IMG/VR virus record: IMGVR_UViG_3300028139_000001
Coordinates: 1 to 64,000 of that record
Source of the DNA: a virus
Taxonomy: Duplodnaviria > Caudoviricetes
Strand: one strand, 5' to 3'
DNA length: 64,000 nucleotides
Position numbers and translations under genes: made by a program
The notes under the pieces: model-generated
The model's database searches: none
The model's input: only the letters and a program-made list of their open reading frames with translations
Told to the model about the DNA's origin: nothing
Shown here: in pieces, positions 7,801-17,156 of the stretch
Layout of the letters: each line of letters starts with the position of its first letter
Numbering within the stretch: the stretch's first letter is position 1

Positions 7801-10800
7801 CTGGGAATGCATACAACTGAGTGATACAAGGAGACATAACTAAGTGCTTTGACTCGATACCTCACACCGTGATAATGAAACGTATTAACGAAAAATTCGG
7901 AGATAAAAAGTTTATTAGTGTAATAAATAACTTCTTATGCGCTGGGCACATTGATCCCAAAACAGGAAAGATTAACAGATCCAAATTCGGAACTCCCCAA
8001 GGTGGGATACTTAGCCCTATCCTTAGCAACATAGTGCTTCATGAACTAGATAAATATATGATGAAACTAGCCGCAAGCTTCCGTAAGGGTAGCCGTAGAA
8101 GGTGGAACCCTATGTATAAGAGTCTGCTTGCGAGAAGAGGTAGATCTAAATCCCCTGCAGTGAGAGATCAGCTTCTTCAACAGATGAGAACTATGAGAAG
8201 CGTGGACGCTTTCGATCCAGACTTCCGTCGCCTATCATACGTGCGGTATGCCGATGACTTCGTGGTGCTAGTCTCCGGAAGCTCGAAGGATGCGGGTTAT
8301 CTAAGGAACAACATTAGGGACTTCCTGAGGACCAATTGCGGTCTTGAGTTGAACTCTGAGAAAACCCTTATTTCCAACTTGGCGAAGGAGAAGTGAAATT
8401 TCCTGGGTGCAGAGATATCAAAGATGAGACTAAACTCCAAGTGGCTTGTCTCTCATGGAGATAAAAGGATTATTGGGACTCCCAGACTTCTTGTGAACGC
8501 TCCAATGACGACCCTTATAAGCAAGTTGAAGAAAATCGGTATTGTACGTCAAAACCTGGATCAGAAGATGTTACCCCAGGGTCTGACTACCTTGGTGAAC
8601 TTAAGTCATCATGATATAATCAGATTTTATAACTCTAAGATTAATGGTATTTTAAACTACTACAGCTTTGCTTCAAATCGTAACAGCTTACACTCTATAT
8701 TGTGGTTGTTGAAAGCATCCTGTGCCCTTACCTTAGCGCGTAAGCATAAACTAAGGACGTTGAGTAAAGCGTTCAAGAAATTCGGTAGATATTTGAAATG
8801 TCCCGATACGGGGAGCGCTCTAGTTAGGCCCGGATCCCTTAAGGCGATCCACGAATTTAAGGCTGGAAATGTTATAGGGGTGGAGGACGCGATTAACAAG
8901 ATATGAAGCGGAAAGCTTACAAAGTCCAGCTTCGGTCTTGTCTGTGCGATATGTGGATCTGGTAATGACCTTGAGATGCACCATTACAGATCGGTTAAAG
9001 ACGTAAGAGCTAAGTACCGTAAAGGTGACGAGGTCTCTTTTGCCGAATTCCGAGGTGCCCTCTTGCGTAAACAAATTCCATTATGCGAGTATCACCACAG
9101 GCTGTACCATAAAGGGGAACTGTTGGCTTACGAGCTCAAGAAAATTGCCGGTTATAAGCCCCCCGTAATCCCAGTGGATCGAACGAAGTCGGAGCACTCG
9201 GTATCAGGGGATACCACAAGTCCGTTGACAGAGGCTTAAGGATAGGGTACGGGTGAACCCCGAGCTACATCCTCCGGGTGACGGAAAAGAGTGGGGTTAG
9301 GCCTTGCGTCTAGTGATTTGAGTTAGTTAATCAATCTCTGGTAACACTAGGTCTCCGGCTCCTTATCAAATCAGGACTATTAGTATGGACGATCATAATT
9401 GTACTCTGGACACCAGTTAATTTGTGGCGAGCCGTATGATGGGAAACTATCACGTACGGTTCTGAGGGCAGTTACTTAACGTGCTGACCCCTACCTTTAC
9501 TTGTACTTATTGAGTTCATAAGTTATCTCGCTCGTAACGTATCATTAGGGCTAAGATTAGCAGCCAACATAAAAAAAAAATGAGACTAAGTGCCTCATTC
9601 TTATTGTGTAAAAGAGCCAAACTCCGGGGAAGCCCTAAAGCTCTAATAACTAAAGGTAATATGGAAACTTTTTACCTGGCCTCATTAATGATTGAGGGTA
9701 TAGTAATATCATTAGAGATTCTAGTAATAGAAATGGGTGATCGCGGATCTAAAATAGATAATGAATTATCTGTAAAAGAGCAACGAGTAGACGGTTCTTC
9801 CATTATGTAAAACCAATGGTAAGGTGTACTCTAGTCGCCGGGAAAGCCGGTTATTAGGCAAAATTAATTAACCTAATATTAAAGTTATCACAATAGCCTA
9901 TCCTTATTTTATAATATTTATCCTCTTTATTTTTATCTACTCTATCAACATTGTAGTTGAGAATAAATAGGTAATTGAAAATAATGATATAATCGATAAT
10001 TTCGTAAGATGTAAAATCATACTGTAATACTTTAGAGAAAGGATATAAACACCTTTAAATAAGGGACAAAATTTATACCTTTAAAGAAAGGATAAAGTTG
10101 TGAACGAATTATATTATCTTTTGTTAAAAATTTCACTAAGAGATCTGTCACACATGATAGGTTTAACTTATATAGCGTAAGATCGCGTAGATTATTGTAT
10201 CCATTTAAAAAGTATGCCTTTTTTACAAAGTGTTTAATACCTCTTGGTGTGAATGTGAGAGCGTTTTCAACTTCAAAAAATGACGATTCTTTTTCCGATT
10301 TGGTAATTTTTTCTGATGCAGATAAAGACAAACTAGATATCCTTAAATATATTAAAGGCAAATCTGGAATATATAAAAGGTACCTAGCCCTTGGCTGCAT
10401 AGCTCCGCTATGTTTAAAATTTAATTCAATTTGGCGTAGATATTATTCAGATATTACAAAGAATAAAGTTAATAAAAGTAGCGTAACACCTATTGTAGAA
10501 AAGGATGACACTTTTTTAAACAATTCTCTAGGAGGAACTTCCGAAAATCATACTAATTTATCATTTAATAAACTTAATCCTTATTTTGTAACAGGGTTCA
10601 CGGATGGTGAGGGCTCATTTATAATAAGTGTTACCAAAAACTCAGAAAGTTCTCTAGGTTTTCGTGTTAAAGCTATTTTTAGTATTTATCTACATAAAAA
10701 AGACTTAGAACTTTTGAAGCTTATTCAATCTTACTTTGATGGAGCAGGAAATATAGGAGAAAATCATAAAGATTTTTGTAGTTATACCTTTAATTCTTTA

Positions 10801-16800: not shown

Positions 16801-17156
16801 ACCTTTTAAAGGAAAATATTTGTTCAAATTAGTAGACTAGTATTCTGAGGTATACGTCGTATACTTTTCTAGTACATCTCGTAATTGAAGTATATATCTT
16901 TTTTTATATTAATAAAATAATATAATCTAAGGGTGGAATTGTTGAACGATTAAGTGGGCACATGCTATTGAATATATTAAGTGGATTTACATACAACATT
17001 ATGAGTTCAGGAATAATTTTCTTTTTATTAGGAGTATTACCGTTGCTGTTTATAATAGCGTTCTCTGGATTAGAATTAGGTATTGCATTTATCCAATCTC
17101 AAGTTTTTGTAGTCTTGTCTTGCTCTTACATAAAAGATGCATTAGAACTACATTAG
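4846..17156 (+). CDS. atp6: ATP synthase subunit a; join(4846..5183,6620..6771,9495..9570,16949..17156), 257 aa
   Basis: SPLDQFEI, NNLIGMV|PYSFASTSH, GCPLGLL|PLLVLIEFISYLARNVSLGLRLAANI|LSGHML, FIQSQVFVVLSCSYIKDALELH*. Exon sum is 774 nt. Confidence 0.97.
5184..6189 (+). CDS. LAGLIDADG homing endonuclease, in frame with atp6 exon 1
   Basis: YITGLVDAEG and WLIGFVEGEG motifs; open to TAA 6187-6189 with TGA=Trp. Confidence 0.9.
6420..6503 (-). repeat. Hairpin element inserted inside the intron core
   Basis: Reverse complement of 4117-4201. Confidence 0.85.
6772..9239 (+). CDS. Group II intron reverse transcriptase/maturase/HNH endonuclease (~822 aa), in frame with atp6 exon 2
   Basis: RRVEIPK, RPLGI, HGFRP, GDITKCFD, GTPQG, YVRYADD, maturase X domain and CAICGS..HH..LC..HH; no TAA/TAG from exon 2 to 9237. 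Confidence 0.95.
6772..9494 (+). mobile_element. atp6 intron 2, group II (IIA-like)
   Basis: Starts GTGCG; domain V GAGCCGTATGATGGGAAACTATCACGTACGGTTC at ~9429-9462; ends CCCCTAC; exon 3 resumes in frame. Confidence 0.97.
10108..11466 (+). CDS. GIY-YIG N-terminus fused in frame to a double-motif LAGLIDADG endonuclease
   Basis: KGKSGIYK followed by YFVTGFTDGEG and WLAGFITAEG; frame open from 10108. Confidence 0.85.
   Translation: MILSFVKNFTKRSVTHDRFNLYSVRSRRLLYPFKKYAFFTKCLIPLGVNVRAFSTSKNDDSFSDLVIFSDADKDKLDILKYIKGKSGIYKRYLALGCIAPLCLKFNSIWRRYYSDITKNKVNKSSVTPIVEKDDTFLNNSLGGTSENHTNLSFNKLNPYFVTGFTDGEGSFIISVTKNSESSLGFRVKAIFSIYLHKKDLELLKLIQSYFDGAGNIGENHKDFCSYTFNSLDDICNILIPHFDKYPLIGNKFADYLLFRKAVMLIKDKSHLTEEGLKAIINIKALLNRGLNEELKTAFPKNIPVERSVVVNQVLDNPQWLAGFITAEGSFFLNVYKANTKIGSGIKLVFRITQHIRDELLIRSFIQYFGCGKVYKKTGKDAVDFMVTGFSDITNKIIPFLCEYPVLGNKSKDFQDFCVIAELIKDKKHLTSEGLKEILSIKAGMNTKRQYPI
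11615..12511 (+). CDS. GIY-YIG endonuclease (~298 aa)
   Basis: KAGIYRWVNKVNGNTYIGSS, NUMOD3-like HTEQSK repeats and a C-terminal NUMOD1-like domain; continuous in code 4. Confidence 0.9.
12551..13215 (+). pseudogene. Displaced C-terminal part of host GIY-YIG gene A
   Basis: RRLLEYYNVN..LLKYGYTNFSLTILE..PEYNILK; interrupted at 13157-13195 by a hairpin element between AAA and RALGYR. Confidence 0.75.
13157..13195 (+). repeat. CCCACAT/ATGTGGG hairpin element in a GIY-YIG ORF
   Basis: GCTGTTGCCCCCCCCCACATGTAAAATGTGGGAGGGCTA, flanked by GCT. Confidence 0.85.
13298..14494 (+). CDS. Tandem GIY-YIG fusion ORF (host N-terminus plus inserted full GIY-YIG), ~398 aa
   Basis: KSGIYRW..CYVGSS followed in frame by KAGIYRWVNKVNGKSYVGSS..; open in code 4. 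Confidence 0.85.
14515..15322 (+). pseudogene. Displaced C-terminal part of the GIY-YIG gene starting at 13298
   Basis: DRFRRYFNHS..ALLKYGYVGFRLEILEYC..PEYNILKTA; contains an AT-rich palindromic insertion at 14717-14766. Confidence 0.75.
15335..16444 (+). CDS. LAGLIDADG endonuclease (~369 aa, no ATG start)
   Basis: PYWVTGFIDAEG and WLAGFTSGDG; open from 15335 to TAA 16442-16444. Confidence 0.88.

Follow-up and report, generated by a model that had tools for sequence, protein, structure and literature searches.

Copies of a 3' splice-site element precede endonuclease genes within a group I intron of a fungal mitochondrial atp6 gene and may act as weak alternative acceptors

Results

The third atp6 intron contains five copies of an acceptor module

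The 64,000-nucleotide stretch analyzed here (positions 1 to 64,000 of IMG/VR record IMGVR_UViG_3300028139_000001, hereafter the window) is a fungal mitochondrial genome that uses genetic code 4. It carries many open reading frames (ORFs) encoding LAGLIDADG and GIY-YIG proteins, as well as tRNAs and introns of groups I and II. Its atp6 gene comprises four exons and three introns (Table 1), the third of which is a group I intron whose interior is almost entirely ORF or ORF fragment. This intron harbors five acceptor modules, namely, its own 3' end and four internal copies that end at positions 10106, 11625, 13305, and 15333, each of which lies directly before an endonuclease reading frame and terminates in CG.

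The RNA data consisted of Logan contigs from two phyllosphere metatranscriptomes (X4 and X13), in which joints were listed down to a depth of 11. All three atp6 splice junctions were present in both, and the joint between 9570 and 16949 reached a depth of 5657 in X4 and 2282 in X13. A spliced mRNA contig from the Joint Genome Institute (JGI) collection, L014, is 100% identical to the window and consists of 4443-5184, 6620-6771, 9492-9571, and 16949-19157. The RNA joint in two runs and this contig show that exons 3 and 4 are joined precisely, with a U as the last base of the 5' exon and a G as the last base of the intron. Most transcripts are spliced at the terminal module and yield atp6 mRNA. 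Since the frame running from exon 3 into the intron closes at a stop codon at 9588-9590, any fusion of the internal ORFs to exon 3 would need an alternative acceptor.

A bipartite helix specifies the 3' splice site

The 17-mer GGATAAAGTTGTGAACG occurs at 10090-10106 (module A1) and at 15317-15333 (module A2), and a search allowing up to three mismatches returned 2 matches in the 64-kb window versus 0.21 expected. The two motifs are identical over 23 nucleotides (nt), within a 34-nt repeat that is 88% identical. Module B reads GGATAAATTTGTGATTCG (13288-13305), and the true 3' end of the intron reads GGGTGGAATTGTTGAACG (16931-16948). All modules are predicted to pair with one conserved 5' strand at 9888-9905, forming a bipartite helix of 14 bp in which TCACAAT pairs with GTTGTGA and TATCCTT pairs with AAGGATA (7 bp each). 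The CG follows 3 to 5 nt downstream of the module consensus AAGGAUAAAGUUGUGA. The helix with 9888-9905 that is available to the terminal module can also be formed by the internal modules, whose CG is invariant; predicted duplex energies for the five modules range from -12.6 to -15.0 kcal/mol, compared to a background of -4.3 ± 2.7 kcal/mol across 6989 intron positions.

Relatives of this intron were collected by searching contigs of JGI metagenomes for the terminal part of exon 3, which yielded 120 loci, 40 of them with an intron at that site; protein look-ups added relatives L001 to L005 and L139 to L143. Relatives without an ORF (introns of 457 to 680 nt; L047, L054, L083, L093/L104, and L109) contain only one copy of the motif, and this copy abuts exon 4, so the motif must be the 3' splice-site element of the family. 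The helix is also supported by compensatory changes: a C-to-A change in the 5' strand is matched by a G-to-T change in the module in L048 and L054, an A-to-G change is matched by a T-to-C change in L030 and L059, and among terminal modules a T-to-C change is accompanied by an A-to-G change. The closing pair of the helix appears as U-A, U.G, C-G, A-U, G-C, or G.U among relatives.

When the modules were paired with the 5' strand of their own intron, terminal modules gave a mean of -12.6, compared to -10.9 ± 0.3 for permuted partners (0 of 5000 permutations equaled this value), and proximal modules gave a mean of -12.3, compared to -11.6 ± 0.3 (37 of 5000). Because kinship among the loci inflates these tests, they are supportive but should not be read as probabilities. 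Taken together, covariation and predicted pairing show that the bipartite helix formed between 9888-9905 and the acceptor module determines where the 3' splice site lies in this atp6 intron family. Sequence comparison likewise shows that the internal modules are true homologues of this element, as duplicated or recombined copies that mark cassette borders.

Table 1. Coordinates of atp6 and of the features of its third intron in the window
Feature	Coordinates	Strand	Evidence or remark
atp6 exon 1	4846-5183
atp6 intron 1	5184-6619		LAGLIDADG ORF in frame with exon
atp6 exon 2	6620-6768
atp6 intron 2	6769-9491		Group II, reverse transcriptase/maturase ORF
atp6 exon 3	9492-9570	+	Terminates ...AAC AT, phase 2; RNA joints 6768 to 9492 and 9570 to 16949; spliced contig L014; translation
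atp6 intron 3, group I, 7378 nt	9571-16948	+	RNA junction 9570/16949 in two runs
Only ribozyme core of intron 3	9576-9887	+	RNAalifold and nhmmer family profile
Internal guide sequence	9600-9609	+	GTGT 9606-9609 pairs with exon ACAU (P1); CTTATT 9600-9605 is the P10 partner
Core helices	P7, 9784-9791 with 9830-9837; P8 between them; P9, 9838-9850; P9.1, 9852-9878	+
Conserved 5' strand TCACAAT-AGCC-TATCCTT, partner of every module	9888-9905	+	Duplex energies, covariation; just behind P9.1
Acceptor module A1 (AAAGGATAAAGTTGTGA-ACG)	10087-10106	+	Position and flank common to ~15 relatives
Fusion-frame ORF: leader A, GIY-YIG N-terminal stub (...GKSGIY), LAGLIDADG 1 inserted in frame	10108-11466	+	Pfam, translation
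Displaced MWTNKLNGKKYVGSS	11470-11514	+	Repeat comparison
Acceptor-like module C (GGATAGTATTGTTAATACG)	11607-11625	+	Kept with its ORF in L139/L141/L142/L143
Intact GIY-YIG/NUMOD3/NUMOD1 ORF C (putative endonuclease), nested after YVGSS of GIY-A	11627-12511	+	Pfam; homologues P0152, P0153
Displaced rest of GIY-A (NUMOD1)	12551-13180	+	Pfam; full-length GIY-A in L114, L116, L025
Acceptor module B (GGATAAATTTGTGATTCG)	13288-13305	+	Upstream flank terminal-type; proximal in L126, L048
Leader B, GIY-B N-terminal stub, nested intact GIY-YIG	13307-14494	+	Pfam
Displaced rest of GIY-B (NUMOD1), ends at TAA within module A2	14510-15322	+	Pfam, ORF list
Acceptor module A2	15314-15333	+	Motif same as A1
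Leader A' and LAGLIDADG 2	15335-16444	+	Pfam; homologue directly behind core in L003-L005
Tail: GIY-YIG C-terminal remnant and segment homologous to tail of ORF-less relatives	16445-16930	+
Terminal acceptor module (GGGTGGAATTGTTGA-ACG)	16931-16948	+	Splice site observed in RNA
atp6 exon 4	16949-17156	+	RNA contigs, L014, translation

Intron 3 contains a single ribozyme core

An nhmmer profile built from the cores of the relatives matched 9576-9905 with an E value of 2.8e-101, and RNAalifold analysis of 20 relatives yielded 72 pairs, with compensatory changes in 29. This family profile was used because Rfam model RF00028 gave no score on the atp6 intron 3 core even at E ≤ 10. A compensatory change from ACAU/GUGU to ACGU/GCGU in two lineages (L048, L054, and L113) proves by covariation the predicted P1 pairing of exon ACAU with GUGU. 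Neither the core-family profile nor Rfam detected a second core within 9911-16948. The profile did match three other introns of the window, at 51593-51935 (E = 3e-31), 53522-53648 (E = 2.5e-13), and 28578-28745 (E = 1.2e-10), the second of which lies within a group I intron that Rfam scores at 53481-53769. The intron at 51593 is closely related to the atp6 intron 3 core but lacks a segment of the 9888-9905 type.

In the RNAalifold model, TAGGT in the P1 loop (9585-9595) pairs with AGCCTA (9895-9900) through UA, AU, GC, GC, and UG pairs, with CG in five sequences. This pairing could be a tertiary contact that places P1 beside the 3' splice-site helix. The window alone has TAAGT in its P1 loop, which breaks one of the G-C pairs with AGCCTA.

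Splicing at internal modules would place endonuclease ORFs in phase with exon 3

Pfam identified LAGLIDADG_1 twice per ORF in the ORFs beginning at 10108 (E = 1.8e-55) and 15335 (E = 1e-57), and GIY-YIG with NUMOD3/NUMOD1 domains in 11597-12511 and 13307-14494, all in intact frames. Joining exon 3 to 10107, 13306, or 15334 opens 452, 395, and 369 codons, respectively, whereas the other two frames shut after 0 to 23 codons; joining it at 11626 is in phase with ORF C for 294 codons. All four internal sites thus put their ORF in phase with exon 3. The modules of types A, B, and C are 17, 18, and 19 nt long, respectively, and since the G occupies codon position 2 in each, the frame is anchored on the G rather than on the helix. 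Each of the 21 relatives that have a proximal module keeps the fusion frame open for 62 to 452 codons, while the other frames shut after a median of ~6.

The first in-frame ATG is at 10894 in the 10108 ORF and at 15755 in the 15335 ORF, such that neither LAGLIDADG ORF has an ATG before its first motif. The leaders that separate the modules from the endonuclease domains span 57 to 75 codons among relatives and have never acquired a stop codon or a frameshift, even though their ratio of nonsynonymous to synonymous substitutions (dN/dS) is 0.4 to 1.15, compared to 0.1 to 0.24 for the adjacent GIY-YIG domain. A near-neutral but always open leader is the pattern expected for a linker through which translation must continue from upstream. 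The A1 and A2 leaders have diverged to ~40% amino acid identity despite their 23-nt identical motifs.

These data bear on an earlier note on this DNA, prepared from the sequence, which had proposed that one ribozyme serves four 3' splice sites. The look-alikes that it had placed at 10106, 13305, and 15333 were confirmed at exactly those coordinates, and the reading frames that it had derived from joining exon 3 to the following base indeed encode Pfam endonuclease domains. Its observation that the 15335 ORF has no ATG ahead of the first motif also holds, as does its finding of a single intron core, the modules having no ribozyme of their own. The number of sites needs correction to five, since module C had been overlooked.

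Modules occur together with leaders and ORFs in relatives

Relatives that bear an ORF contain two copies of the motif, a proximal copy (consensus cctttaaagaaaGGATAAAGTTGTGAACG) 420 to 735 nt into the intron, directly before the ORF, and a distal copy (GGATGAATTTGTGGAACG) before exon 4. Besides the terminal copy, L139, L141, and L142 carry one internal copy of type A and one of type C, which is the A-plus-C arrangement also found in the window. Elsewhere, type A modules accompany a GIY-YIG gene in L114, L116, L025, and L018; in L003 to L005, a type A leader is followed by a LAGLIDADG ORF 80% identical to that at 15335. In L126 and L048, a type B module and its GIY-YIG gene immediately follow the core, and in L139 and L142, a type C module is accompanied by its own GIY-YIG gene. 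Because A- and B-type modules stand alone behind the core in other fungi (L126, L048, L114, and L003), the acceptor, leader, and ORF exist as a unit. In L001 (1868-1884), the TAA of the A2-type motif is TTA, and the upstream GIY remnant and the LAGLIDADG ORF form one 614-codon frame that runs through the module.

The interior of intron 3 reads as a series of nested invasions. In order, it appears to contain module A1, leader A, the start of a GIY-YIG gene, LAGLIDADG 1 (~10381-11468), MWTNKLNGKKYVGSS, cassette C (11607-12511), and the rest of GIY-A; then a tail, module B, leader B, the GIY-B stub, a GIY-YIG gene inserted after YVGSS, and the rest of GIY-B; and finally module A2, LAGLIDADG 2 behind leader A', a GIY remnant together with the tail, and the terminal module. 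The related GIY-YIG genes at 11607-12511 and 13650-14494 each directly follow the YVGSS codons of another GIY-YIG gene; an acceptor-like motif is found only in the former, and the latter is fused in frame. Between the displaced GIY stub and module C, at 11531-11576, a 23-nt sequence (AACAACAATAATATAAATTTAAT) is repeated in tandem, its two copies being 96% identical, and a unitig break in X4 falls inside this repeat.

The flank upstream of module B is of the type typical of terminal modules, and module B therefore looks like a former intron end. L109, an ORF-less intron of 457 nt, corresponds to L040 minus its ORF, joined at the motif, and combines a proximal-type flank with a terminal-type motif. 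This composition implies that acceptor repeats recombine, and L109 itself looks like a precise ORF loss via recombination between two acceptor copies. The earlier note had suggested that each invading endonuclease carried its own acceptor. The occurrence of A- and B-type modules as units in other fungi agrees with this suggestion, but LAGLIDADG 1 brought none, as it sits in frame inside a GIY-YIG gene behind the resident acceptor. Unequal recombination between the proximal and terminal modules carried by intron variants, to which both the flank of module B and the L109/L040 pair point, explains the array at least as well as acceptor-carrying invaders do.

Only the canonical junction is found in RNA contigs

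Several observations weigh against use of the internal sites. No joint at an internal module was found in the X4 and X13 Logan contigs down to the listed depth, and the depth across the intron 3 interior was flat (591 to 701 in X4 and ~377 in X13), with no step behind the acceptors beyond what a co-occurring relative explains. A scan of JGI data for exon 3 joined to 10107, 13306, or 15334 and for L003-type junctions, with a pattern that excluded 9570/11626 and the "ACTTAT" leaders found in other relatives, gave 0 matches, even though the spliced L014 contig, which comes from this organism, is part of the collection. Covariation with the 5' strand is poorer in proximal modules than in terminal ones, and several proximal modules (L028, L040, and L042) retain an A × C mismatch. 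P10 is weak, with five of six pairs for 16948 and 15333, four of six for 10106, and three of six for 11625 and 13305, and it is also nondiscriminating, as 25% of G positions in the intron reach four of six pairs. P10 modelling, which the earlier note had put forward for checking the sites, accordingly fails to single out the internal ones. Finally, a conserved Met 19 codons past module B would permit the downstream ORF to initiate on its own.

Two further signals in X13 were considered and rejected. A depth step at 10074-10103 reflects a co-occurring relative with the same conserved motif block rather than a junction at 10107, and the joints from 9642 to 9770 and from 9800 to 10828 have sides shorter than 30 nt and do not end at a G; they were treated as foreign or repeat artifacts. 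Contigs carrying the ORFs of the window were all collinear with the DNA, with no alternative junction among them. Two raw RNA-seq runs labelled with the same species (X19 and X20) together gave a single read, and none from this organism. No predicted protein joined ATP-synt_A to leader A (at near lengths) or to leader C (at longer lengths) in a search that covered these two leaders.

One JGI contig, L130 (5446 nt), starts exactly at 11626 and is 100% identical to 11626-17071. With ~14 contig starts observed and 7.4 kb containing four such positions, this coincidence has a chance of ~1%. A contig from a sister sample, L128, reads through this position (9450-17071). The start of L130 may hint at ligation or cleavage directly after the G of module C.

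Because assemblies drop rare variants, these negatives bound the use of internal sites to roughly a few percent or less, and rare use of the kind reported for Podospora is compatible with them. The four-way switch competing with Atp6 production that the earlier note had envisioned is unsupported, given the flat intron depth and the fact that 9570/16949 was the only one of the predicted junctions found in contig-level data, from which assembly drops rare forms.

The group II intron of atp6 (6769-9491), whose domains V and VI are recognized by Rfam at 9427-9494 (62 bits), showed a contig depth ~3-fold that of the atp6 exons in both metatranscriptomes (~18000 versus 5700 in X4). This intron seems to build up after excision.

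Discussion

We consider it slightly more likely than not, at roughly 55%, that the internal modules are weak alternative 3' splice sites for ORF expression. In a minor fraction of transcripts, the strand at 9888-9905 would pair with an internal module instead of the terminal one, and exon 3 would be ligated to the base after its G. The leader and endonuclease ORF would then be in frame with the N terminus of Atp6, and the fusion would borrow the translation signals of atp6. In parallel, recombination at the repeated modules may allow cassettes to be gained, stacked, and lost, as the comparison of L109 with L040 and the flank of module B suggest. The complete picture, in which one ribozyme and one 5' strand use five interchangeable modules to produce either Atp6 or four different Atp6-endonuclease fusions while the modules double as recombination joints, demands more and is quite unlikely to hold in all its parts.

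A rather unlikely alternative, although the best of the competitors, is that the internal modules are footprints, with no role in splicing, of cassette exchange through recombination of proximal with distal copies of the 3' element. They would at most close the 9888-9905 helix locally for compact folding, and translation of the endonucleases would begin at internal AUG or AUA/AUU/UUA codons of intron RNA, either unspliced or excised. The hybrid makeup of L109, the terminal-type flank of module B, the less faithful tracking of the 5' strand by proximal modules, and the canonical junction being alone in the RNA contigs all fit such footprints, as do the conserved Met after module B and an ATG just ahead of the LAGLIDADG motif in L003. 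Yet a relic should decay, whereas the module persists in ~20 diverged relatives, and A1 and A2 have kept their 23 nt identical while the leaders behind them drifted apart. Nor would footprints require near-neutral leaders to stay free of stops and frameshifts all the way back to the motif, or lock the frame to the terminal G in three module lengths, and two LAGLIDADG ORFs lack an upstream ATG.

The exact start of L130, with 100% identity onward, and the failure to find a ligated alternative junction in either the contigs or the JGI scan would also fit internal modules that act as ribozyme-directed cleavage sites. In this case, docking of the G would lead to hydrolysis at the 3' splice site, producing an RNA that begins with the first leader base and is translated from an internal start. 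Group I ribozymes are well known to hydrolyze the 3' splice site as a side reaction. We nonetheless regard this alternative as very unlikely, since it relies on a single contig start in a single sample, with the sister-sample contig reading through, and leaves unexplained both the conservation of phase with exon 3 and leaders that are open right up to the G. A twintron, whose cassettes would each be excised independently by a ribozyme of their own, is extremely improbable. A favorable sign was a short R/S-like palindrome in the tail (~16806-16850), which was rejected as a core because it has no match to the core profile. The same profile that detects three other introns in the window finds one ribozyme core only in intron 3, the interior leaves almost no room outside ORFs and their fragments, and the RNA contigs contain no internal joints at cassette borders; the twintron reading is therefore rejected.

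The expression of intron endonucleases that lack their own start signals is still poorly documented, and the Podospora model of alternative splicing is based on very few cases. The atp6 intron family supplies this model with a defined RNA element, a covarying helix followed by CG, of which ORF-less introns have one copy, ORF-bearing introns two, and atp6 intron 3 of the window five. Recombination between duplicated modules suggests a route by which endonuclease genes may be gained, stacked, and precisely lost, which bears on the life cycle of homing endonucleases and on how fungal mitochondrial genomes grow. Should the internal sites be in use, no other group I intron would be known to splice in so many alternative ways.

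The closest known systems are introns nad1-i4 and cox1-i7 of Podospora anserina, for which proximal alternative 3' splice sites have been described (Sellem & Belcour 1994, NAR 22:1135, as related in PMC3073962, PMC7902536, and PMC10448965); according to these accounts, the alternative product is rare and was detected by polymerase chain reaction (PCR). A review (PMC8393795) also covers the fusion of internal intron ORFs to the exon upstream by alternative splicing. As in the Podospora introns, to the extent that these accounts describe them, a complete core lies upstream of an ORF that is discontinuous with the upstream exon and has no start, and a look-alike of the 3' splice site directly before the ORF would restore phase with that exon. 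Whereas one or two such sites are described there, the atp6 intron has four internal sites for four ORFs, and a covarying bipartite helix of 14 bp defines where its site lies. Use of the Podospora sites was detected by PCR in those accounts, whereas the internal sites of the atp6 intron are known from their sequence.

Mono-ORF and bi-ORF introns provide a second comparison, since their optional ORFs move with flanking intron sequence and homologous introns occur with and without an ORF (Sellem et al. 1996; Sellem & Belcour 1997; as cited in PMC4964425). The relatives of atp6 intron 3 likewise occur with and without an ORF. In contrast to what that source relates of mono-ORF and bi-ORF introns, the co-moving, repeated stretch is identified here as the acceptor module, ORF loss appears to have proceeded through the repeats (compare L109 with L040), and cassettes are stacked up to five layers deep.

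"Core creep," splicing-mediated fusion of ORFs to exons, and invasion of resident GIY-YIG genes by LAGLIDADG genes are all known (PMC3073962, PMC8393795, PMC10448965). As in core-creep systems, the endonuclease ORFs of the atp6 intron would depend on the host exon for their expression, although the DNA itself does not join them to the exon. As in known LAGLIDADG invasions, the N terminus of a GIY-YIG gene appears to have been taken over and the remainder displaced downstream, here at 10381-11468. Alternative splicing for the expression of an intron ORF is of a known kind, as in Podospora; the multiplicity of sites, the defined helix, and the proposed role of the modules in recombination are new.

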